From contig JBNKTL010000004.1 in NCBI GenBank assembly GCA_050298055.1, positions 66,223 through 130,222 of the forward strand: DNA of 64,000 bases, written 5' to 3'. This DNA comes from Spirochaetota bacterium (GTDB lineage Bacteria > Spirochaetota > UBA4802 > UBA5550). The position numbers were made by a program, and so were the translations under genes. Positions 21,990-64,000 of the stretch are shown here, piece by piece. Numbering within the stretch: position 1 is the stretch's first letter; each line of letters begins with the position of its first letter. The notes below the pieces were generated by a model, which made no database searches, was not told the DNA's origin, and was given only the letters and a program-made list of their open reading frames with translations.

Positions 21990-22919
21990 TTGCTCTCCCC
22001 TGCAGAGGAATTTTTTAAAAGTGAGGATAAGAGGATGAAAGATCCGAAAGAAGTTTTTGTTAAGCTGTTTTCCTTCCTGGTCTCCACCGATGAGGACCGG
22101 GAGCTTCTTAATGCCATGGCATCATACGTGTGCCATATTGAGACAGGGGACCGCGAATATCGTGTGGTCCTGAACACGCCCGGCAAGTGGTACCTCCTGC
22201 ACGCGTATCCGCCCCGGGACTCCGACCTGAAACCATCAATGCCCGGGGACTACCTCAAAATTATGCGTCACCATTCAGACCTGATGCTGTCGTTATGCTT
22301 TATGGCCAGTGATGTTGCCACAACACTGGAGAAGCAGGTTGCCGAGGATATTGGTGTCTCTTTCTGGTTTCCCGATTGGTGCGATCCCTATGACTGGTTA
22401 CGTACTCTTGTACAGGATTCTCCTGTGGCCGGTGACGAGGAGATTGATGCAATTGATTTTGTTCTTGGTTTTTCTTTTGGTTGTTACTTCCTGACAGGCT
22501 CTGACCAGGAAGACCGCCGAATGGTCTTTGTGGACCGCGATTCTCCTCTTCAGGGACTTGACGAGCTCTTCGGTAAAACGCAGGAGTCCGGAGAGGGGAA
22601 AGGATCCTCAGAGTACTCCCGTTTTGCCCGAATGGAAGTTGGTTCCCTGTATCTGAAACTTGCCTATCGGTTCGTTGTGGAAAGCATAAAAATTTATAAG
22701 GTTAAACTGGTGTCCGGGGGGAGCCGAAAGTCAGATACCATCAGTGGACTGAGCTCTCTGATGGGGATCAACCTGGAGGAAGCCCGGGACCTTGTGGAAC
22801 GTTCGCCTGTTATCATAAAAGAGGGGATTGAGACCATGGATGCGGCCAGAGAACTCGTGGAAAAACTTGAGGAACTGGGGGCAGTGGCTACGATGAGTGA
22901 TGAGAAAAAATTTCCCTGA
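21990..22919 (+). CDS. Hypothetical protein with a C-terminal ribosomal L7/L12-like domain
   Basis: C-terminal YKVKLVSGG.RK...GINLEEARDLVERSPVIIKEGI...LVEKLEELGA. Confidence 0.75.
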   Translation: MLSPAEEFFKSEDKRMKDPKEVFVKLFSFLVSTDEDRELLNAMASYVCHIETGDREYRVVLNTPGKWYLLHAYPPRDSDLKPSMPGDYLKIMRHHSDLMLSLCFMASDVATTLEKQVAEDIGVSFWFPDWCDPYDWLRTLVQDSPVAGDEEIDAIDFVLGFSFGCYFLTGSDQEDRRMVFVDRDSPLQGLDELFGKTQESGEGKGSSEYSRFARMEVGSLYLKLAYRFVVESIKIYKVKLVSGGSRKSDTISGLSSLMGINLEEARDLVERSPVIIKEGIETMDAARELVEKLEELGAVATMSDEKKFP

Positions 22920-24133
22920 TGAATTCATTAAAGATTGTCTTTATAATACTTCTCCTGTTAACCTGTCATTCATGTAAAAAGGACTCTCACCTCTCGCCGA
23001 AAGAGCTGCTGGGGAAAAAACTTTTTTTTGATGAGAACCTGTCATCGCCTCCCGGGCAATCGTGTGCAACCTGCCATGACAGGAAAGGAGGATGGGCCGG
23101 ACCAGATTCAAAAATCAACAGGGAAACCGGCATATACCCGGGGGCCCTGAAACCAAGATTTGGAAGACGCAAACCCCCTGCAGCGGCATATTCCGGGTTC
23201 AGCCCTCCACTCCACATTGACAAAGAAGGAAATTTTATCGGAGGCCTTTTCTGGGATGGCAGAGCCACAGGCTGGGAGACAGGAGACCCCCTGGCAGAAC
23301 AGGCCATGGCCCCCTTTTTAAATCCACTGGAACAAAATCTTGCAAACAAAGAGGAAGTCATTAAAAGAGTGATTGCATCAGATTATGCTGATCTTTTTGA
23401 AAAGGTATGGGGAAAAGGCGCACTTTCTCTTAAGGAGATTGATAAAACATATATATTCATTGTTCGATCCATTGCCTCATATGAACGGTCCATTGAATTG
23501 AATCCCTTTAATTCCAAATTTGATGACTTCTGGAAAAAGACCGTAAAGGCCGGCCTGGATGTAGAGAAAATTGATGCAGAGAATCAAAACACCTTCCGTG
23601 GCCTTGGTCTCGGTGAAAGAGAACTGAAAGGTCTTGTCATATTTAATACAAAGGGTAAATGTTCTCAATGTCATGTCTTAACCTCTGATGGTACACCGCC
23701 ACTCTTTACTGATTTCACATATGACAATCTCGGTGTACCACGGAATCCGAGGAATCCATTTTACAGGCAGGATAAAAAAATCAATCCCCTGGGGATAAAG
23801 TGGACAGATCCGGGCCTGGGTGAATTTCTAAAAACCGTACCAAAATTCAGGAAATACGCCCGCCGGAACCTGGGCAAACACAGGGTACCAACTCTGCGCA
23901 ATGTTGACATGAAGGAATCGGATAGATTTAACAAGTCCTTTATGCACAATGGCGTCTTCACCACCTTAAAGGAAGTTCTTGATTTTTACAACACCCGGGA
24001 TATTGCTGAAAAAAACTGGCCGAAACCTGAAGTAAAAGAAAATGTCAATACGGATGAATTGGGAAATCTGAAATTGACTGATGCAGAGATTGATGATGTG
24101 CTGATATTTCTTAAAACACTCTCCGATGGATAA
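22919..24133 (+). CDS. Di-heme cytochrome c peroxidase / MauG family, probable lipoprotein
   Basis: LGKKLFFDENLS, SCATCH, GLFWDGRA, CSQCH, VPTLRNV and FMHNG. Confidence 0.9.
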   Translation: MNSLKIVFIILLLLTCHSCKKDSHLSPKELLGKKLFFDENLSSPPGQSCATCHDRKGGWAGPDSKINRETGIYPGALKPRFGRRKPPAAAYSGFSPPLHIDKEGNFIGGLFWDGRATGWETGDPLAEQAMAPFLNPLEQNLANKEEVIKRVIASDYADLFEKVWGKGALSLKEIDKTYIFIVRSIASYERSIELNPFNSKFDDFWKKTVKAGLDVEKIDAENQNTFRGLGLGERELKGLVIFNTKGKCSQCHVLTSDGTPPLFTDFTYDNLGVPRNPRNPFYRQDKKINPLGIKWTDPGLGEFLKTVPKFRKYARRNLGKHRVPTLRNVDMKESDRFNKSFMHNGVFTTLKEVLDFYNTRDIAEKNWPKPEVKENVNTDELGNLKLTDAEIDDVLIFLKTLSDG

Positions 24134-52421: not shown

Positions 52422-53309
52422 CTATTTGTAATCGTTGATCCTTTCACTCTTCTTCTCATCCAGCTCAATAACCTCCTGGAGGCTCTTGAAGTGAGGAGAA
52501 TCAACTCCATAGATCAGTTCAACAGCCTGGAGCATGCTTCTGTTCTTCTTATTCTTGTAGAGCATGATATCTTCCTCTGTTGCGTGTTTGTACTTTGTGA
52601 GTACTGCTTCCATATACCCGTAGCAGCTTGCAAGGTATTTGTACGCCCATACGTCCTTCTTGTTTTTCTCAGAGAGAGTCAGGTATCTTTCAAGGATCGG
52701 GATGCACGGCTTGAAGTTATTCAGGTCGTAATTTGTGGATACATACATCTGGTAGAGCCGTGACTGGAAATTTATAAACCTGGCGTCCTTCTTTACTTCA
52801 ACTGATTTTATGTCATCAAGATAGTAGATAGACTTGGTGAAGAAGGTTATTGCTTTCATCTTGGCTTCATACTTTTTCCTGGCAATAATTCGCTGTTCCT
52901 GGTTTTTCCTGTCAATCTCCTGCCAGTAGAACCTTTCGTTCAGGTGTTTTTTGCCCTTCTGTGCTGTTTTGATCTTAGATACCTCGTTCTCCATATCCTC
53001 CAGGATATCCAGGCCTGTTGAGTATTCGTCAATTGCCAGCCTTAAAAGGTTTTCAGAATACTCCTTGTTCAACTTCTGGAGTTCCCTGATGGCTTTCACA
53101 TAGGGATGGAAGTCTGTAGTCCTCCAGCCGCCGGTATCCGAATCACCGCCCTTTGCCGGTTCTTTCACCGGGGTGGTCTTTTTATCACCGGCTGTTCCCT
53201 TCCCGGTACCGGTACCCTGGGCAGACAGTACTGTCTGAAACAGCAGTGAAAGGATAAAAGCACAGGCCAATCCTGTTGCATGGCTCTTCTTAAATATTGC
53301 AGATTTCAT
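52422..53309 (-). CDS. fcpA: Flagellar coiling protein A homologue (periplasmic flagellar sheath)
   Basis: W..TDF..Y.K...EL..L, YWQEIDRK, CIPILERY, YKYLASCY and ELIYGVDSP match my recollection of Leptospira FcpA; signal peptide present. Confidence 0.85.
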   Translation of the reverse strand: MKSAIFKKSHATGLACAFILSLLFQTVLSAQGTGTGKGTAGDKKTTPVKEPAKGGDSDTGGWRTTDFHPYVKAIRELQKLNKEYSENLLRLAIDEYSTGLDILEDMENEVSKIKTAQKGKKHLNERFYWQEIDRKNQEQRIIARKKYEAKMKAITFFTKSIYYLDDIKSVEVKKDARFINFQSRLYQMYVSTNYDLNNFKPCIPILERYLTLSEKNKKDVWAYKYLASCYGYMEAVLTKYKHATEEDIMLYKNKKNRSMLQAVELIYGVDSPHFKSLQEVIELDEKKSERINDYK

Positions 53310-54945: not shown

Positions 54946-56214
54946 TCAGGCCTTTACAACGGGGATCTCGTCCCACCGGGTCGTATATCTCTTTGAGAGG
55001 AAGGCCCGCCTCATCTGCCATTTTTTCGATACTCCCTCCGCTGCAAAAGAAAGACTCTCTCTTCCCATGGACCTGTTGATCCTGTCCAGGGTCCGCATCA
55101 GTGAGCGGTTCTCCTCCATCTTCCCGAAGGGGGTGAAGAGATCAAGCTGTGTCTCGCTTTCGGGTGTGATATCGGAGAGCATCACCCCCACCTTCTTGTA
55201 GCGGTAGTTCTCCCTGTATATTTTTTCCAGAAGACCCCCGGCGCATCCCATGAGGAGAGGGGTGTAGGAGGTGGCAACGGGGATTCCGCACCCGGCGGCG
55301 TTGGAGTACTGGGGATCGCCGGTAAAGGGATTGGTTGTTATGAAAACCGTTATGAATGAGGCGATGCTCTTCTCCAGGCGGAGCTTTTCCGCTCCCCGGG
55401 AGGTGTATGAGGCAAGGGCCTCTCTCAGCTGGCCGAGGTCCCGGACGGGGGTCCCGAATGACCGGGAGCAGACAATCCCCTGCTTGGAGGGAGGCGCTTC
55501 TTCCAGGGGGATGCAGGGTATTCCCCGGAGCTCATAGACTGTCCGGAGCCCCATTATTGTCATGTTTTTCTTTATCCATTTGTCAGGGGCGTCCCGGAGG
55601 TGAAGGGCGGTGGAGATCCCGTTCCTGTGAAGGAGCTTTGTATACTGCCTGCCCACCCCCCACACATGGGAGACCTCTATGCTGTGGAGGAGGGCGTCTG
55701 TCTCCGGATGGGAAGTGATGTTGAATGTTCCCCGGTGTGAGGGGTTCCTCTTGGCAATCATGTTTGCCAGTTTTGCCAGTGTCTTGGTAGGGCCGATACC
55801 CACGGAGACGGGAATGCCGGTCCATTGTTTTACTGTTTCCCTTATGGTCCTGCCCGTGCGAAGGATGCCCGGGCCGGCATCCTCCAGCAGGAGAAATGCC
55901 TCATCTATGGAGTAGACCTCCATCTCCGGGGTGAAGGTTGCCAGGCACTCCATGACCCGCCTGGACATGTCTCCGTAGAGGGTGTAGTTGGATGAAAAAA
56001 CGGCTATCCCCTCCTTTTTAATGAGAGGCTTCAGCCGGAAGTAGGGTTCCCCGAAGGGCATCCCCATTTTCTTCACCTCCTCCGATCGCGCCACAACATT
56101 TCCGTCGTTGTTGGAGAGCACCACCACCGGGGACCTCCAGAGGGAGGGGTCGAAGACCCTTTCGCAGGATATATAAAAATTGTTGCAGTCCACAAGGGCA
56201 TAAACTCCCTTCAT
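54946..56214 (-). CDS. umuC: Y-family DNA polymerase V catalytic subunit
   Basis: [40 protein letters not shown] and C-terminal W.MRR..LS.RYTT.W. Start set at the ATG at 56214. Confidence 0.93.
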
Positions 56215-56219
56215 TCCTG

Positions 56220-56660
56220 TTACCTCACTGTATGTATGACATGTATCACAACCCCCCACACCTCGAAACCGGATTCGGGGCCTACGGCTATGGGTGCGTA
56301 GCGGGGATTTTCGGCTTTGAGGAACGCCCTGTTGCCCTGGATAATAAGCCGCTTTACGGTGAGTTCGCCGTCCAGGGCCGCTATGACAATGCTGTTGCTC
56401 ACAGGTGTCTCGGCCCTGTCCACTATCAGGGTGTCCCCTGAGTATATTCCCGCCCCTGTCATGGAATCACCCGATACCTTTACGAAAAATGTTGCTGAGG
56501 GATGCTTTATGAGCAGCTCATTAAGGTCCAGTCTTCTGTCAATATAGTCATCGGCAGGGGAGGGGAAGCCTGCGGATATCCGTGCGGCAAAGAGGGGAAG
56601 TCTTATCCGGGTGTTGCATTTCACCCTGTAGATAGCTTTTCCGGTAAAGGGGTTGTTCAT
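56220..56660 (-). CDS. umuD: DNA polymerase V autoproteolytic subunit
   Basis: [10 protein letters not shown] cleavage region, GDSM (Ser) and TVKR (Lys). Confidence 0.93.
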
Positions 56661-56691
56661 AGGTCTTTTTGTCTCCTGTTGCGGGGAATCC

Positions 56692-57012
56692 GGGGGTCGG
56701 AGCCCTGTCTTAATAATATCAATATAATAAAGAGCGGGTATATGTCAACAAATGTTTAGTATGTTTTTCAGGAAAAGTCCAGGGGTCAGAGCAAAAATTT
56801 TTGGATTAAGAAAACAAAAAAATGGGGGTCAGAGCAGAATCTAATGTGACATAATCCTGGATAGAAGAGAAAAATTAATCTGTTGTGGGTCCTTAAAAGA
56901 TAATTGTATGTGAATTTTACCGATGCTCTGACCCTTTGCTTAGTTTTGAGGCGGTATTTGCCAAGTGCTCTGACCCTGATTCCCGGTTTGAATTTGCCGG
57001 TTGCTCTGGTCC
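56692..57012. repeat. Nested cluster of GGGGTCAGAGCA / TGCTCTGACCC REP-like repeats
   Basis: Forward copies at about 56693 (degenerate), 56782 and 56825; reverse copies at 56924, 56966 and about 57002 (degenerate). Confidence 0.75.
56721..56757 (-). promoter_or_regulatory. Putative sigma70 promoter of umuDC with a palindrome over the -35
   Basis: Minus strand AAACATTTG-TTGACA-N16-TATATT. Confidence 0.45.
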
Positions 57013-57032
57013 TCCGGTTTCGTATATTTTTT

Positions 57033-57701
57033 TTAATCTACCGGGACTATGCATTCAGGTGAGTTGTTTTTCGGTGAATTGACCAGGTCAGATACAGGGT
57101 GATACTTCATTTCATGAGAAGGGAAGGGTTTCAGAAGGGAAATGACTTCTTCAGCGGGGTGGTTCTCCGTATCCAGCCAGGTGTTAATATCCTGTTCATG
57201 GAGGATCACAGGCATCCTGTTGTGTATCGGCTCAAGGAGCCTGTTGGGGGTTGTGGTAATTATGGTGCATGTTTCCAGGACTTTCTTCTCTCCCGATACC
57301 CACTTTTCATGCAGACCGGCCATTACCATAAGTTTCTTGTCTTCAAGGTATACGTAAACAGGATGTTTCCCCTTTTTCTTTTTTTCCCATTCGAAGAAGC
57401 CGCCGGCAACAATCAGGCATCTCCTGGCAGAGAGTGCCTTTTTAAAGCCCGGTTTTTCCCCAATGGTTTCAGCCCGTGCATTAATCATCCTGTACCCTGT
57501 TTTCGGGTCCTTTGCCCAGTGAGGGACCAGGCCCCACCTGAAGTCTTTCAGTATCCTTTTCTTATTGCAAAAGACAATTGATGGTATGGAGTTTCCCGGA
57601 GCAACATTATAGCTGGGTTTCGCAGAAGAATATATTTCATCGATGTCATAGTATTCTGCAATGATATTAAGGTATTCGGTATTTGCAAATCTTCCGCACA
57701 T
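57033..57701 (-). CDS. SOS response-associated peptidase (SRAP/YedK/HMCES)
   Basis: N-terminal MCGRF, YNVAP, WGLVP.W, INARAET, GFFEW and IHNRMPVIL. Confidence 0.95.
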   Translation of the reverse strand: MCGRFANTEYLNIIAEYYDIDEIYSSAKPSYNVAPGNSIPSIVFCNKKRILKDFRWGLVPHWAKDPKTGYRMINARAETIGEKPGFKKALSARRCLIVAGGFFEWEKKKKGKHPVYVYLEDKKLMVMAGLHEKWVSGEKKVLETCTIITTTPNRLLEPIHNRMPVILHEQDINTWLDTENHPAEEVISLLKPFPSHEMKYHPVSDLVNSPKNNSPECIVPVD

Positions 57702-58190: not shown

Positions 58191-58436
58191 ATGAAGAAGT
58201 TTTTAACTCTTATTGCAGCAGTAGCGATAATGATTTCATTATCATCTGCTGACCTTATGGCTACAAAAAAGATTAAAAAAGCCCATGATGGTAAAAAAGG
58301 CAAAGACGGAGCTAAAATTAGCTGTTCTTACTGCCACAAAAAGGCCAAAGTCCCCAAGCTGAAAAAACCTAAAAAATACACAGGACAAAAAACAAATCCT
58401 TATTGTATGAAATGTCATGCAAAAATGAAGAAATAA
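58191..58436 (+). CDS. Small, highly basic, exported di-heme c-type cytochrome
   Basis: GGAGG RBS, signal peptide, CSYCH and CMKCH, an extra His (KAH), Lys-rich. Confidence 0.85.
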   Translation: MKKFLTLIAAVAIMISLSSADLMATKKIKKAHDGKKGKDGAKISCSYCHKKAKVPKLKKPKKYTGQKTNPYCMKCHAKMKK

Positions 58437-58472
58437 CCAGATATAATCTATATCTACTGGTTCATTAAATGA

Positions 58473-58499
58473 GGATGTCTTTAAGACATCCCTTTTTTT
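58473..58499 (+). terminator. Intrinsic terminator after the small cytochrome
   Basis: GGATGTCT-TTA-AGACATCC followed by a T7 run. Confidence 0.75.
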
Positions 58500-58823
58500 G
58501 TCTTCATAAAAGACCTGTTTATTGTTGATCTCTACGTGATTTTATCATACAGCTGAGTAGCAACTACACAGGCACAGGTTATAAGTACAACCAGTCATAA
58601 AAAAATATTGACAAAAAATTAAAAATATGTAGATTGAGCAGAGATGAAAAGATTTGCCTGAAAAATAATTTTTCACTATTTTCATAATTCCAGGTATCAA
58701 GTTATACAGGTCATACAGATCAGTTTTTGGAACATGATGGCTATCTGTATAAATACATAAAAAGCGATTTAATCCCAACATATTATAGTTTAGTTGCTCT
58801 ATTAAATAGAGGGGAGTGCTTTT

Positions 58824-60689
58824 GTGATAAAAATTTTAACCTACATATTCTATAGGAAAAATATTATATGTAAACTGTCTGGTGTTCTGAAACACCCATT
58901 GCTTTTGCTATTGGTTATTCTGTTCATAAACGCCTGCAGCGTCCTGAGAGATCAATTATCCGGGGAAAACAGCTCATGTGCCGCATCAGACTGCCACATT
59001 TTTACTGTTCTGAAAACTTATCCTCCGTTAAGCGGAAAACATGCTCTCCACCTCTCCCGGGATAATATCTTTTGTGACAATTGCCACAGTAACTATAATT
59101 CATTCCTCTCCCATAAGAACGGGACGGTTGATGGATACAGCACTTCCGTTAATATTGTATCTTTCGATTCAATTAATCCTTCCGCTTCCTGGAATAATTC
59201 CACAACAAGCTGTGAAAACCTCTCCTGTCATACAAATGCCGACTGGTACGGTACGGCATCATTCGGTTGCACCGGCTGTCACTATGGCGGTAGCGGGATA
59301 GATCCTGTTTTAATCAACGGAAACGGTATAGAGGGGAAACATCAGAAACATGTTTCGGACATGGGGATACCCTGTGAGAAGTGCCATTTTAACTATAAGA
59401 GCATGTTGACCCATGCCGACGGTTCTCTTGATACCGATAACAGTTCGGTTCTTATGACATACTTTGATACCTCCAATCCTTCCGGTTCCTGGACGGGAGA
59501 TACCGGAGCTCATACCGGAAGCTGCGCTTCTCTGGCGTGTCACGGAACATCAACCCTGGATTGGTACGGCTCTAATACATGGGTCCTCCCGGCATGTGAT
59601 TCATGCCACGGTGCACCGGCAGGGAACAGGAGGCAGGTGACCGGAACGGGAGGTGATTTTGCAGGTAACAGCTCCATCCTCTCCCTGCATGTGCGGGGAA
59701 GTTCCGATCCCACGGATGAGCAGTGTCAGGTGTGTCATGAAATGTCTGCCCACACGGGGGGGACTGTCCGACTGAAAAATGCGGATAACGGAGCGGCAAT
59801 AGTATACGACTCTTCCGATATATCCTCTCTTGAACCATTCTGTCTCAGCTGTCACGATTCGGATGGCGCCCTGTCCGGTTACGCATCTGGGGGATCTGCA
59901 GATAATCCCTTCAGTGACGGTAATAATCTCGGGATGCCCCCATATCCTTATTCAAAAAGAATTTCCGTAAGCTGGAATAAAGTTAACGGTCACGGTCCCA
60001 ACGGAGGTCATGGGCAGGGAGACAGGCTTACCTGTCTTGGTACCGGGGAACCGGGAACCGGCTGCCATGGCAATAACGGGAGTATAAATGCTCACGGTTC
60101 CACCTGGGATGCAATAAGTACAAAGGAATTCAAATATGATCTTCCGGACAGCTATTCCGAAAGCTATTTTGATCTCTGTTTCAACTGCCATGCAGGCTAC
60201 CCCGGTGTTACCAAAGAGGATATATTCGGTGTTAAGCCGGGTGGAGTATTTGACTGGGATTACGGTCCTTCCGGAGGACCTAACGGCAACAACCCGCCCT
60301 ATTATACCGGTGCAACGACCACCCATTTTGCCGATATGGGAGATACCGGATCGGGGCTTTTTTATGATGATTCTTTCTGGGGTGATCAGATGAATCTTCA
60401 CTGGTCCCATATAGGTATTCAGGCATCTGACTACAGGGGGACCGGTGTTGATTCCGGCATAACCTGTGTAAACTGCCATGATGTCCATGGTACCTCTACA
60501 GTATACGGAATGGTTTATTCCGAGATAGGGTATAGTAATGGAGCCGGTGCCGGTCCGGATATTTACGGTAAAATGAATGATGGCTTTCCGGGAAATACAA
60601 GCGGGTATCCTGCATATTGTGGTGGTTTTGCATGCCATGATGTATTTACAGGTTCCATGCATGTGTGGTTTTACCCCATGAACGAGTAG
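58824..60689 (+). CDS. Multiheme c-type cytochrome lipoprotein (CxxxxCH/CxxCH type, 12-13 hemes)
   Basis: Lipobox INAC; 8 CxxCH, 4 CxxxxCH and one Cx9CH (CLGTGEPGTGCH); GAGGGG RBS before the GTG. Confidence 0.9.
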   Translation: MIKILTYIFYRKNIICKLSGVLKHPLLLLLVILFINACSVLRDQLSGENSSCAASDCHIFTVLKTYPPLSGKHALHLSRDNIFCDNCHSNYNSFLSHKNGTVDGYSTSVNIVSFDSINPSASWNNSTTSCENLSCHTNADWYGTASFGCTGCHYGGSGIDPVLINGNGIEGKHQKHVSDMGIPCEKCHFNYKSMLTHADGSLDTDNSSVLMTYFDTSNPSGSWTGDTGAHTGSCASLACHGTSTLDWYGSNTWVLPACDSCHGAPAGNRRQVTGTGGDFAGNSSILSLHVRGSSDPTDEQCQVCHEMSAHTGGTVRLKNADNGAAIVYDSSDISSLEPFCLSCHDSDGALSGYASGGSADNPFSDGNNLGMPPYPYSKRISVSWNKVNGHGPNGGHGQGDRLTCLGTGEPGTGCHGNNGSINAHGSTWDAISTKEFKYDLPDSYSESYFDLCFNCHAGYPGVTKEDIFGVKPGGVFDWDYGPSGGPNGNNPPYYTGATTTHFADMGDTGSGLFYDDSFWGDQMNLHWSHIGIQASDYRGTGVDSGITCVNCHDVHGTSTVYGMVYSEIGYSNGAGAGPDIYGKMNDGFPGNTSGYPAYCGGFACHDVFTGSMHVWFYPMNE

Positions 60690-60877
60690 TGCCGGGGTAT
60701 GAGGTGAAAATTTATTACCATTAATACTTATTATGAAAAAATATATTGACAAAATTTTAAAAATATGCACGTTATTTTTTTTCAGGGATTTCTCGATTAA
60801 AAAAAGATCACAGCAAAATGGAGAGTTTTATTTTTGCAGATATTGCTCGGTAAATAATTCAACGGGATTAACTTATT

Positions 60878-63800
60878 ATGAATCAATCACATATATTCCT
60901 TAAGTTATCATGGTTACTGGCCACAGGATTCCTGATTTTATTCATTACTGCCTGCAGTGACCTCAAAGACACGGTTTCCCAACAGGGGAATAACTGCGCT
61001 GCTTCCGATTGTCATACCTCAACACTTCTTAAGCAGTATCCCCCCGATTCCGGTCGGCACACAGAACACCTTTCTACAGGGTTAAGCTGTGACAGCTGTC
61101 ATTTTAACTATAATGAAAATGCCCTCCACAAGAACGGAGTAAAGGATACGGATACCGGGGAGGTGATTGTTTTCTTTAATCTAAAGAACACAGCTGTTTC
61201 CTGGAACCAGCGGATAACAACATGTGAAAATAATTCCTGTCATAAAGATGCTGACTGGTACGGATCGGCCGTTTTCGGATGTACCGACTGCCATTCTGTT
61301 CCTGAAAGCGGATCGCACAAAAAGCATTCCGGAGATCTTTCCTATGAATGCACGGAGTGTCATAACGGGTACCGGTATGATCCTTCGCATACAAACGGGA
61401 CCCTTGATAACCCGGACAGTTCGCCGGGCATGATGAGTTTCGGTACCCTTAATCCATCCGGATCTTACGATAACAGTACCGATACCTGTTCAAACCTTCA
61501 GTGTCACGGATCAGGCACACCCCGCTGGGGGAGCAGTTCCGAATGCGGAAGCTGCCACGGGAATCCCCCTCTCACCGGGGCTCATTCAAAGCATGTGACC
61601 GATTCCGGTTTAGCATGTAATGAATGCCACCTTGAAAGGGGAAGCGGTACCTCGTATCATGCAGATGGAAATCCTGACGTTAATGTCACAACGGCAGTCA
61701 ATCCTTCGGGCAACTATACTCCGGGAGTCCTCCCGGGCACGGGTACCTGCGACAGCCTCTACTGCCACGGATCGGATACACCTGCATGGGACGGAACGGT
61801 CTCCTGCGGAAGCTGTCATGGGACTCCTCCCGCTACCGGTGCGCATTTGCGGCATGTGAATGATATGGGGTACAGCTGCAGCAAATGTCATAACGGGAAT
61901 GTCCACGGAAGTATGGCGGTAGAAGTGGGTTTCGATGCCACTAATCCCTCGGGGAACTATGTTCCGGGAAGCAGCCCCGGTACAGGCACCTGCAACAGCC
62001 TCTCCTGTCACGGGTCCGGTTCGCCTGCGTGGGACGGTACCATAACATGTGATGGCTGCCACGGGAACCCGCCCCTCACCGGGGCTCATTCAAAGCATGT
62101 GACCGATTCCGGTTTAGCATGTAATGAATGCCACCTGGAAAGGGGAAGCGGTACCTCGTATCATGCAGATGGAAACCCTGACGTTAATGTCACTACGGCA
62201 GTCAATCCTTCAGGCAACTATACTCCGGGAGTCCTGCCGGGTACGGGTACCTGCGACAGCCTCTACTGTCACGGATCGGATACACCTGCATGGGACGGAA
62301 CGGTCTCCTGCGGAAGCTGTCATGGGACTCCTCCCGCTACCGGTGCGCATCTGCGGCATGTGAATGATCTGGGGTACAGCTGCAGCAAATGTCATAACGG
62401 GAGTGTCCATGGAAGTATGGCGGTAGAAGTGGATTTCGATGCCACTAATCCCTCGGGGAACTATGTTCCGGGCAGCAGCCCCGGTACAGGCACCTGCAAC
62501 AGCCTCTACTGTCACGGGTCCGGCTCTCCTGCGTGGGACGGTACCATTACATGTGATGGCTGCCACGGGAACCCGCCCCTCACCGGGTCTCATTCAAAGC
62601 ATGTGACTGAATCCGGGTATGAATGCAGCCAGTGCCATTTCAGCAGGGGGAGCGGTACTTCATATCATGTAAATGGAAATCCCGATATTAATTTCAATTC
62701 TTCGCACAGCCCCAGCGGTCACTATTCGGAGGGAGCCTGTTCGAATATCTACTGTCACGGGAATTTTACGGGAGGTAATAACGGGACCATACAGCCGGTA
62801 TGGGGGGAAACGGTAAGTTGTTCAACTAACAGCTGTCATGGGGGAAATGCCAGTGGAAACCCCGCATGTTCGTCTGTACCTGACTCAAAACACGGGACCC
62901 ATATATCGGCTATCATGAACATGAACAATCCGTCAACCGGTTTAGTCTATACCGAGGAAGAATCCTGTTCCGTTTGTCACAGCGGCCATGGTTACGGAAC
63001 ATCAAGCCATATAAATATGAAAGTTGATGCGGCATTTGACTATACACCGCCGGAAGGCCTTGCGGGGACCATTCTCTCCGGGGGGGATTATGACACCATT
63101 TCGGGAAAATTCCAGAATATTGCCTGCAGCAGCACATATTGCCACGGGAACTTTGCAGGTGGGAATGCCGTTACGGTCAACTGGGGCGAATCGGTTTCCG
63201 ACCCGGGATGGTGCGGGAGCTGCCATACGACATCTCCGGTGAGCGTAAAACATTCGGAACACCTTGCCCTTTACCCGGGGGAGTGCGGGTACTGTCATCA
63301 GGGGTATACTTCTTCATCTGCTCCGGCCGGTCATGTGTCGCTGGTGAAAGATGTTAAATTTAACTATCCTCATTCACTGTCAATATCATCGTCATATGAC
63401 AACGCTACAAAAACCTGCTCGGGTGTCTACTGTCACGGGAATTTTCCCCCGGTAACCTATACGAACAGGTATGATGTGACAGCTGTAATAAATCCCGGTA
63501 ACAGTGACAACCCGGTCTGGCAGGATTCTTCAACGGCCCCCTGTGGTTCATGTCACGGGAATCCGGATAACAATTATTCATCGTTAACTCACGGCGGGCA
63601 TACAGATGCAATAAGATCTTATGCAAAATCCATATTTTTCGGGAACCCCCTGAGTATTGAAAGCTGTGATGCCTGTCATAACTATGGGGACGACACCGAA
63701 AGATCTTTTGATACTACCAGTACCCAGGGAAGTTACAATACCGTAAATCATGCTGATTTTTCCATTAACGATTCGGGAGTCAATGATGATGTTAACTTTA

Positions 63801-64000
63801 AGGCGGATGACTCAGACCTTGCTTCCCGTATAGGAAGTCTTGTGGCCTCAAAAACCAGCTGGGACCCTGCCACCACCACATGTTCAAATTCCTGGTGTCA
63901 CGGGAACTTTTCCAATGGTGTTGACATCACCGGTTATAACGGGACGCCAGACTGGCTTAACGGGACAACCGGAACCTGCGGTACGGAGGCATGTCACAGT
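60878..64000 (+). CDS. Giant multiheme c-type cytochrome lipoprotein (at least 31 hemes; runs off the window end; not in the ORF track)
   Basis: The frame is open from the ATG at 60878 to the window end (1041 codons): MNQSHIFLKLSWLLATGFLILFITAC-SDLKD...CAASDCH. Hand count gives 18 CxxCH and 13 CxxxxCH. Confidence 0.93.
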   Translation, partial: MNQSHIFLKLSWLLATGFLILFITACSDLKDTVSQQGNNCAASDCHTSTLLKQYPPDSGRHTEHLSTGLSCDSCHFNYNENALHKNGVKDTDTGEVIVFFNLKNTAVSWNQRITTCENNSCHKDADWYGSAVFGCTDCHSVPESGSHKKHSGDLSYECTECHNGYRYDPSHTNGTLDNPDSSPGMMSFGTLNPSGSYDNSTDTCSNLQCHGSGTPRWGSSSECGSCHGNPPLTGAHSKHVTDSGLACNECHLERGSGTSYHADGNPDVNVTTAVNPSGNYTPGVLPGTGTCDSLYCHGSDTPAWDGTVSCGSCHGTPPATGAHLRHVNDMGYSCSKCHNGNVHGSMAVEVGFDATNPSGNYVPGSSPGTGTCNSLSCHGSGSPAWDGTITCDGCHGNPPLTGAHSKHVTDSGLACNECHLERGSGTSYHADGNPDVNVTTAVNPSGNYTPGVLPGTGTCDSLYCHGSDTPAWDGTVSCGSCHGTPPATGAHLRHVNDLGYSCSKCHNGSVHGSMAVEVDFDATNPSGNYVPGSSPGTGTCNSLYCHGSGSPAWDGTITCDGCHGNPPLTGSHSKHVTESGYECSQCHFSRGSGTSYHVNGNPDINFNSSHSPSGHYSEGACSNIYCHGNFTGGNNGTIQPVWGETVSCSTNSCHGGNASGNPACSSVPDSKHGTHISAIMNMNNPSTGLVYTEEESCSVCHSGHGYGTSSHINMKVDAAFDYTPPEGLAGTILSGGDYDTISGKFQNIACSSTYCHGNFAGGNAVTVNWGESVSDPGWCGSCHTTSPVSVKHSEHLALYPGECGYCHQGYTSSSAPAGHVSLVKDVKFNYPHSLSISSSYDNATKTCSGVYCHGNFPPVTYTNRYDVTAVINPGNSDNPVWQDSSTAPCGSCHGNPDNNYSSLTHGGHTDAIRSYAKSIFFGNPLSIESCDACHNYGDDTERSFDTTSTQGSYNTVNHADFSINDSGVNDDVNFKADDSDLASRIGSLVASKTSWDPATTTCSNSWCHGNFSNGVDITGYNGTPDWLNGTTGTCGTEACHS
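61551..62690 (+). repeat. 504-bp (168-aa, 6-heme) intragenic tandem repeat, two full copies plus a diverging partial third
   Basis: GCTGCCACGGGAA recurs at 61551, 62055 and 62559. The first two units are nearly identical. Confidence 0.92.

Follow-up and report, generated by a model that had tools for sequence, protein, structure and literature searches.

Can a spirochaete move electrons across its outer membrane? Spirochaetes of anoxic sediments and digesters are usually regarded as fermenters or as hydrogen/formate syntrophs. The question is raised by a 64,000-nucleotide stretch of DNA, here called the window (G000:C4:66223-130222), from a 4.7-Mb Spirochaetota assembly (GCA_050298055.1; completeness 98.3%, contamination 0.77%). 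An earlier note, made from the letters alone, described three co-oriented c-type cytochrome genes at the end of the window and proposed an extracellular electron transfer (EET) system. The three genes stand as given; three more, for a barrel, a 16-heme and an octaheme protein, lie beyond the window end and were outside its scope. Together these six neighbouring forward-strand genes encode five heme proteins with 70 heme motifs in total and one predicted outer-membrane barrel, the order being a di-heme, a 621-amino-acid (aa) and a 1070-aa cytochrome, then the 441-aa barrel, the 16-heme and the octaheme cytochromes and a group II intron (Table 1). The six-gene locus is real, intact and conserved, and it probably forms an outward porin-cytochrome conduit, through which electrons of the quinone pool would pass the outer membrane and reach a mineral, a humic substance, an electrode or a partner cell. 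Such a system would be of a known kind; what appears new, as far as sequence can tell, is its occurrence in a spirochaete, its lipoprotein heme arms that telescope on a constant module, and a tail-less relative of the cytochrome OmcZ.

The predicted barrel and the adjacent 16-heme cytochrome

The earlier note had advised extending the contig in search of a porin, and a gene for a predicted 22-strand barrel was found just past the window end. The protein has no heme motifs, and its AlphaFold model (18-row alignment) has 22 strands, no plug and a predicted local distance difference test (pLDDT) score of 78.1. Among known structures it best resembles outer-membrane barrels, and TonB-dependent receptors minus their plugs head the list, the top match having Z 18.7, root-mean-square deviation 5.0, 361 aligned residues and 8% identity; since the model lacks a plug, identity as a TonB-dependent receptor was rejected. 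No Pfam or NCBIfam family matches the barrel, and its profile gave one chance match among PDB sequences (E 0.26). The nearest Atlas clusters (score 0.98) are unannotated or porin-named and commonest in Zixiibacteriota and Thermodesulfobacteriota, and those homologs for which a name was obtained, a minority of the 87 library matches, comprise spirochaetes and one Cloacimonadota.

The 16-heme cytochrome has 16 motifs and no free Cys. Its N-terminal part consists of c7-like repeats, whose number varies among relatives, and is followed by a C-terminal six-heme segment with invariant His and Trp residues. The best PDB match of its profile is 3ov0 (E 3e-21), presumably the Geobacter dodecaheme GSU1996. 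Residues 270-414 hold 29 Lys and Arg against 7 Asp and Glu, and the mature barrel 40 against 59; a basic C-terminal part facing an acidic barrel is one of the points that argue for a conduit.

The pairing is constant among relatives. Barrel profile matches occur in 16 of 122 genomes of the order and in 20 of a phylum sample of 401, from which two (G326 and G342; 22-24 bits over 75 residues) were dropped as not being real barrels; five come from two families that do not belong to the order. A single-sequence pattern scan of 185,579 species genomes returned two loci, both in spirochaete metagenome-assembled genomes (MAGs). Directly behind the barrel stands a multiheme gene of the 16-heme family in all 24 loci with downstream DNA (25 examined; 17 of the 24 were used to build the 16-heme profile and seven were not). 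Of 17 loci of this barrel type, 16 have upstream DNA, and in 15 of these a cytochrome is encoded on the same strand no more than 6 kb upstream; three of the 15 are short, weak or broken off where the contig ends. Both counts support an outward conduit; L024 and L025, which may equal DNA of order-search matches, were counted once. The arrangement recurs in several genera, and also in a second family, where G033 has genes for a small cytochrome, for two arms, for the barrel and for the 16-heme protein, in that order. The barrels form one clade whose labelled rows are all spirochaetes, with a value of 99 in the Shimodaira-Hasegawa-like approximate likelihood-ratio test (SH-aLRT), in a quick, unrooted tree of 57 rows for which 39 of the 87 library matches were chosen by hand. 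Homologs labelled 'Leptospirales bacterium' and 'Spirochaetia bacterium' (P0025 and P0026) fall in the same clade, and the conduit may reach other spirochaete classes.

Elsewhere in the genome, a second, distant barrel type is encoded beside a 13-heme cytochrome, and the gene of a six-heme lipoprotein runs convergently (L004:7825-12015; G000:C5:71824-76014); the three lie between heme/ccm genes and Wood-Ljungdahl genes. The same three-gene layout occurs in G130 and G179, which belong to another family, and none of the 8 loci of this type has an upstream same-strand cytochrome. A 408-aa protein that ends in Phe and has no Pfam match is encoded right before a tetraheme gene (L007:6424-8138; G000:C24:58423-60137), possibly as a third barrel-cytochrome pair.

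Relation to known conduits

Published work is cited here by PubMed Central (PMC) or bioRxiv number. In the porin-cytochrome (Pcc) clusters of Geobacter sulfurreducens (OmbB-OmaB-OmcB and Ext; PMC4245776), genes for an 18-22-strand porin, a periplasmic and a lipoprotein multiheme cytochrome are likewise adjacent. The spirochaete locus has a 22-strand predicted barrel, an exported non-lipoprotein multiheme protein and a lipoprotein multiheme protein, and a plug-less barrel within this strand range (PMC4245776) argues for an outward conduit. It differs from Pcc in gene order (lipoproteins, barrel, periplasmic cytochrome), in the size of the periplasmic partner (16 motifs, and 11-21 in intact relatives, against 5-14 in Pcc), in having as outer partner a TIGR01904 repeat chain of variable length, and in its spirochaete host. 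No Geobacter-named protein is among the named homologs of the barrel.

MtrCAB of Shewanella, a barrel with an inserted multiheme protein and an outer lipoprotein cytochrome, serves as the working model, and the only fold match of the 621-aa protein model with Z of at least 5 is chain A of the Mtr complex. Membership in MtrCAB was nevertheless rejected, for 22 strands are predicted here against 26 in MtrB (PMC12133095), the barrel has no MtrB family match, and the 16-heme protein scores 30.9 bits against a cut-off of 192.2 for TIGR03508 (DmsE/MtrA family); MtrB is not among the 50 listed structural matches of the barrel either, which does not exclude it. In the case of OetABI, from the sulfate-reducing partners of anaerobic methanotrophic archaea (ANME), a barrel is likewise combined with periplasmic and lipoprotein multiheme proteins in a syntroph-like organism (PMC10553843). 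There, several accessory genes part the barrel from the heme-rich genes, whereas none does so here, in a comparison of gene order and not of sequence, and membership in OetABI was rejected on this ground; moreover, dsrA was not found in the spirochaete genome.

Lipoprotein heme arms

The counts given in the earlier note for the two large cytochromes were borne out. The 621-aa protein, given as a lipoprotein with 12-13 hemes, has 8 CxxCH and 4 CxxxxCH motifs, which make 12, and an unpaired Cys404...Cys414-His415, whose Cys, Cys and His are invariant in a 94-row alignment, is a possible Cx9CH site and thirteenth motif. The third reading frame, described as longer than 1041 aa with at least 31 motifs, has 31 inside the window and, as a complete gene, encodes 1070 aa with 32 motifs (18 Cx2, 1 Cx3 and 13 Cx4), mostly arranged as 4-2-2 triplets. 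In 1000 shuffles per protein, the mean motif numbers were 0.02, 0.15 and 0.63 (maxima 1, 2 and 4) for the 81-, 621- and 1070-aa proteins. The search that the note had recommended with a model of the Geobacter-type CxxxxCH/CxxCH domain was positive for both large proteins, at 31.9 and 235.7 bits against a TIGR01904 cut-off of 27, and PF09698 was passed by the 1070-aa protein alone (38.7 against 21.7). Each has a lipobox-type Cys (C38 in the 621-aa and C26 in the 1070-aa protein) 13 residues before the first motif, CAASDCH, and both were judged lipoproteins by this lipobox motif, without a signal-peptide predictor.

The two arms are paralogous across their first 270 residues (43%), and an N-terminal module is common to the lipoprotein cytochromes of the lineage, which have from 4 to 78 motifs. 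In some relatives, arms are fused to beta-helix, GEVED and laminin-G domains (G019: L043:11044-14844 and L044:1975-5070), which are typical of surface proteins. One module on arms of such different length, and surface-type domains in relatives, both point to an outward conduit, as does the observation that the TIGR01904-positive genomes (10/122) are all among the 16 barrel-positive ones, kin not being independent in this count. A second arm pair in the genome, with 14 and 33 motifs, carries the same module (L002:11107-16895; G000:C12:67106-72894) and is flanked by genes that we take to be recA-like and leuA-like.

The 621-aa protein is, by sequence comparison, the lineage-type module grafted onto a body from a wide family. 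Its residues 146-621 are up to 50-56% identical to 4-18-heme, mostly lipoprotein cytochromes of other bacteria (best 120 of 192 matches; named among them are four Nitrospirota/Nitrospiraceae and one Spirochaetota), and the module is found at 40 bits or more in 9 of 119 listed relatives of the body. For its AlphaFold model (pLDDT 81.9), VIA-align found 2 of 48,161 chains at Z of at least 2 (6r2q_A, Z 5.1; OmcE, Z 2.4), and a fold assignment was dropped because these matches are too weak; Foldseek gave no match at E of 0.001 or below. Searched against PDB sequences, the 1070-aa protein has no match and the 621-aa protein no real one (two antibody chains, E>0.05).

The tandem duplication inside the 1070-aa gene is recent and added six hemes. 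Both copies are seen as separate contigs in public run X1, possibly the source sample; reads were mapped to the two lipoprotein genes only, in three DNA runs of one study that may be the source sample. A 2803-aa lipoprotein with 78 heme motifs (L039:5723-14134; G009:C10) is encoded beside a 30-motif paralog in a related genome, near a two-component system and a tetraheme/4Fe-4S/NrfD operon, and comes close to the record cytochrome, with 86 hemes (cited in PMC12133095). Such cytochromes are described as being gained and lost fast (PMC12977616).

Long modular heme chains of TIGR01904/PF09698 cytochromes, with a 27-heme extracellular wire cluster, are likewise reported from Desulfuromonadia, where long wire cytochromes are predicted to be extracellular (PMC11492766), and these extracellular wires lend support to an outward conduit. 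The Desulfuromonadia cluster is reported outside porin-cytochrome operons, whereas here the chains lie directly before the barrel and share a lineage-type N-terminal module, layout and not homology being compared.

An octaheme relative of OmcZ

The 233-aa exported octaheme is related to OmcZ, to judge by its alignments. As a single sequence it matches PDB entries 8d9m (E 2e-16) and 7lq5 (E 6e-16), and as a five-row profile the same two at E 2.4e-23 and 7.6e-22, the next match being at 7e-6; both entries are G. sulfurreducens OmcZ (PMC9473688, PMC13748539). The two proteins share eight motifs and eight spare His outside the motifs, and stay colinear over the filament-forming part of OmcZ, in an alignment that extends from the signal peptide to heme VII inclusive. 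The His-His pairs H40-41, H96-97 and H182-183 of OmcZ correspond to H68-69, H108-109 and H171-172, H215 of region 2 to H205, and R203, the Arg before heme VII, to R193, and all of these are invariant in 5/5 rows. HMMER aligns the two as far as position 211; motif VIII and H210 are invariant, the region-3 glycines (GxGHxG) are missing, and motif VIII, for which the region-4 pattern in OmcZ is DCxGCH, follows a shorter linker. Of region 1 (DGHY-V/I-P), the Pro and a Tyr after it are kept and Asp-Gly-His is not.

The alignment with OmcZ is a further point for an outward conduit, and it falls short of identity. The Cx14CH loop of OmcZ is replaced by CxxCH, the precursor has 233 aa against 473, and the protein ends 13 residues past heme VIII. 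Searches found no C-terminal Ig-like inhibitor domain in the octaheme and no OzpA-type protease gene in the cluster, the sole subtilase-like protein by motif (L131:323-2263; G000:C13) being unlinked to the octaheme gene. Because of the missing tail and protease, the missing region-1 His and the replaced loop, the octaheme was classed as OmcZ-related and not as OmcZ proper. It occurs in 5/122 genomes of the order and 4/401 of the phylum sample.

Host and proposed electron supply

The contig is spirochaetal, as the earlier note had supposed. The LepA encoded in the window shares 86% and 80% identity with its counterparts in two MAGs titled Spirochaetes/Spirochaetia bacterium, and both MAGs carry the barrel, a 21-heme gene, the octaheme and the same housekeeping genes in order, among which presumably panB follows the octaheme. 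Three matches in the genome pass the FlaA cut-off (0/14 in controls). The fcpA gene that had been cited as a Leptospira-type flagellar marker is indeed FcpA-like (52422-53309), but at 198 bits stays below the FcpA cut-off of 400. A chimeric contig was rejected on LepA kinship, FlaA and low contamination, and we infer the host lineage to be the uncultured class UBA4802.

For heme attachment, CcmB, CcmC-type, CcmE and CcmF genes are present on C5, next to what are presumably heme synthesis genes; ResB, of system II maturation, was not found in the genome. The earlier note had named a chimeric or non-spirochaete contig and absent maturation machinery as grounds for giving up its proposal; neither of these testable grounds was found. 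Its suggestion to look for an inner-membrane quinol oxidoreductase led to candidates: the genome has four NrfD genes, of which one, on C22, follows a pentaheme gene, with close relatives in 3/122 genomes, and a 4Fe-4S gene. Quinone synthesis is represented by menD, above its cut-off, while futalosine MqnC was not found in the genome. GspD, GspE and GspG of type II secretion score above their cut-offs, GspC and GspF below, and LolA is present. A pattern search for type IV pilins had no match, but carries no information, as the gsp pseudopilins escaped it as well. There are 18 acyl-CoA dehydrogenase matches and genes for carbon monoxide dehydrogenase/acetyl-CoA synthase (CODH/ACS), and dsrA was not found in this 98.3% complete genome. 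This set of genes (Ccm, menD, the four NrfD, GspD/E/G, LolA, acyl-CoA dehydrogenases and CODH/ACS, without dsrA) supports an outward conduit. Two other octaheme proteins are encoded, one above the tetrathionate-reductase-family cut-off (L005:11229-12674) and one (L008:7791-9332) before membrane genes that we take to resemble sulfur transporters.

In the literature, multiheme cytochrome expression has been reported for fatty-acid-degrading Spirochaetota (PMC7382037), which favours an outward conduit, and UBA4802 is listed among candidate butyrate syntrophs, with no mention of cytochromes in the available text (PMC13248872). Spirochaetota were also present in an electrode enrichment whose current was credited to Desulfobacterota (PMC13374861). 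No description of a spirochaete porin-cytochrome conduit or OmcZ relative was found in open-licence PMC or bioRxiv full text; supplements, such as the trees and alignments of OetI and OmcZ homologs and the tables of PMC7382037, and subscription papers may list spirochaete members. Spirochaetes are not mentioned in the excerpts of PMC4245776, PMC11475568, PMC13748539, PMC11492766, PMC12545173, PMC12133095, PMC13013709 or bioRxiv 10.64898/2026.05.27.727921, nor in that of PMC10553843, where only the species name Halodesulfovibrio was matched. The remark in the earlier note that such a system was uncharacterised in the phylum thus holds for the conduit but not for multiheme expression as such (PMC7382037).

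Proposed electron path and alternatives

The location of the parts, their contacts, the direction of flow and the acceptor are proposed as follows. Fatty-acid beta-oxidation and acetyl-CoA oxidation would reduce menaquinone, from which the pentaheme/4Fe-4S/NrfD complex of C22 would draw electrons for the periplasm. There the 16-heme protein could form the bridge with its c7-like repeats, and its C-terminal six-heme segment, which is basic, would be threaded through the acidic barrel. A lipoprotein cytochrome, exported through Lol and type II secretion, would use its conserved N-terminal module to dock on the outside and would prolong the heme chain, three-heme repeats being gained or lost to set the length. 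An accessory carrier role would fall to the octaheme, which may or may not polymerise. A bolder version, in which the lineage has its own full wiring, with a barrel conduit, telescoping arms of 4-78 hemes and tail-less, protease-free OmcZ-like nanowires, and oxidises fatty acids with direct transfer of the electrons to minerals or methanogen partners, is doubtful on present evidence.

Several observations weigh against an outward conduit. Lipoproteins can face the periplasm, and Wood-Ljungdahl genes, together with what are presumably NiFe-hydrogenase-type and formate-dehydrogenase-type genes, mean that flow could be inward. The arm pair on C12 has no adjacent barrel, and at L025 no arm precedes the barrel. 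G045 and G046, neither of which has a barrel match, carry the octaheme by itself, and both the octaheme and the C22 pentaheme are rarer than the barrel. The RNA evidence is one 717-nt contig with 10 differences (6 equal to the second repeat copy, 4 new), which is labelled 'mangrove metagenome' and may be DNA. Furthermore, some bacteria with pcc clusters reduce neither Fe(III) nor Mn(IV) oxides (PMC4245776).

If the conduit worked inward, a partner, a cathode, metal or Fe(II) minerals would supply electrons for Wood-Ljungdahl CO2 fixation or the reduction of sulfur compounds. CODH/ACS is present, the second barrel-cytochrome pair adjoins Wood-Ljungdahl, heme and ccm genes on C5, the tetrathionate-reductase-family octaheme and the NrfD genes are possible sinks, and the OetABI conduits of ANME partners have been proposed to import electrons (PMC10553843). 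This direction seems unlikely, as the 18 acyl-CoA dehydrogenase matches suggest a fatty-acid oxidiser in need of a sink, dsrA was not found, and UBA4802 Spirochaetota, the class to which the genome is assigned by inference, are described as syntrophic fatty-acid degraders (PMC13248872, PMC7382037). The arms might instead face the periplasm as spanning wires or electron stores, with the barrel and the 16-heme protein serving a small soluble or surface-bound acceptor. Sorting is unreadable from sequence here, arms without an adjacent barrel occur at C12 and G009:C10, the largest arms of G009 lie near a tetraheme/4Fe-4S/NrfD operon, and long periplasmic wires are predicted in Desulfuromonadia (PMC11492766). 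A fixed periplasm width does not favour a spread of 4 to 78 motifs, though, and the adhesin-type domains fused in relatives, the confinement of TIGR01904-passing arms to barrel-positive genomes and a 16-heme protein probably long enough to bridge alone make periplasmic arms distinctly unlikely.

It is very improbable that the genes are a recently acquired or decaying island, adjacent by chance and with no coherent function. The patchy distribution (16/122), the umuC and SRAP genes upstream and group II intron downstream, and split or short arm or barrel genes in some relatives (L041, L072, L074, L078, L105) would suit such an origin. On the other side, none of the six reading frames is interrupted, several genera and a second family share the gene order, the barrels are one supported clade, and the GC content at third codon positions is 0.41-0.51 in five genes (0.31 in the di-heme gene) against a contig GC of 0.44.

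The di-heme gene and other features of the locus

The small cytochrome was correctly described as a basic di-heme protein: its 81 residues include two CxxCH motifs and 23 Lys and Arg against 3 Asp and Glu. It is c7-like by profile search, below the cut-off, and its nearest Atlas clusters (score 0.92) are c7/c3-like proteins of 74-80 aa. The role of periplasmic shuttle proposed for it is weakened as a dedicated one, and that of dedicated conduit partner was rejected, because matches occur in 48/122 genomes against 16/122 for the barrel. Of 11 other di-heme loci that were read, one lies among multiheme genes (a script confirmed two motifs in 2/11). Probably the protein serves the lineage as a periplasmic carrier for general use and has a loose tie to the cluster.

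The first three genes are co-oriented, as had been noted, but probably not one transcript, given the gaps of 387 and 188 bp, the hairpin after the di-heme gene and a 24-nt motif upstream of each lipoprotein gene. This motif has two exact matches genome-wide, one before each lipoprotein gene, the next best having 3 mismatches; promoter and terminator totals are not above those of shuffles (34 against 29.0 and 17 against 13.1). The group II intron is missing at the same place in L024 and L025.

The cluster is flanked by umuC, umuD-like and SRAP genes on the reverse strand (window 54946-57701). In G009 (L041), too, the paralogous arm pair comes after an SRAP-like gene, and SRAP-arm-arm looks like an older unit. 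Further upstream, a di-heme MauG/MbnH-like gene lies at window 22919-24133, under the family cut-offs.

Table 1. Features of the cytochrome locus, in window positions or, past the window end, in contig positions
Feature	Position	Strand	Basis or remark
Di-heme c cytochrome, 81 aa, small, basic, exported	58191..58436	+	2 CxxCH
Terminator-like hairpin 3' of di-heme gene	58473..58499	+	8-bp stem and T run (L001:1696-1714); consensus match only
24-nt TTGACA-containing upstream motif, copy 1	58606..58629	+	exact; G000:C4:124828-124851
621-aa lipoprotein cytochrome, 12-13 hemes	58824..60689	+	motif count, TIGR01904, lipobox-type Cys
24-nt upstream motif, copy 2	60744..60767	+	exact; G000:C4:126966-126989
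1070-aa lipoprotein cytochrome, 32 motifs	60878..64000, ends 90 bp beyond window (G000:C4:127100-130312)	+	TIGR01904, 235.7 bits
Internal tandem duplication in 1070-aa gene	61551..62696	+	self-blastn; 504-bp period (168 aa with six hemes), copies 92.5% identical across 642 bp
441-aa predicted plug-less outer-membrane beta-barrel, C-terminal Phe	past window, G000:C4:130651-131976 (L001:7652-8977)	+	AlphaFold
414-aa exported 16-heme cytochrome	past window, G000:C4:131991-133235 (L001:8992-10236)	+	starts 14 bp after barrel gene
233-aa exported octaheme, OmcZ-related	past window, G000:C4:133410-134111 (L001:10411-11112)	+	PDB matches
Group II intron, intact 431-aa reverse transcriptase/maturase	G000:C4:134296-136120 (L001:11297-13121)		right behind the octaheme gene's terminator-like hairpin

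Implications

Porin-cytochrome clusters in further phyla are now expected, which limits the surprise of this one. Homology-based EET screens would probably miss the barrel, since no Pfam or NCBIfam model covers it. The parts are small enough to be tested in Shewanella, namely the pair of barrel and 16-heme protein, and the 4-heme minimal arm of relatives against the 32-heme arm, and the tail-less 233-aa relative of OmcZ bears on whether tail cleavage is needed for OmcZ-type filaments. Shewanella oneidensis has reportedly served as a host of OmcZ (bioRxiv 10.64898/2026.07.18.739370). If the outward conduit is true, it would identify the machinery that underlies the multiheme expression of fatty-acid-degrading Spirochaetota (PMC7382037), and a subset of spirochaetes would become candidate reducers of metals, humic substances and electrodes, and candidate partners in direct interspecies electron transfer.

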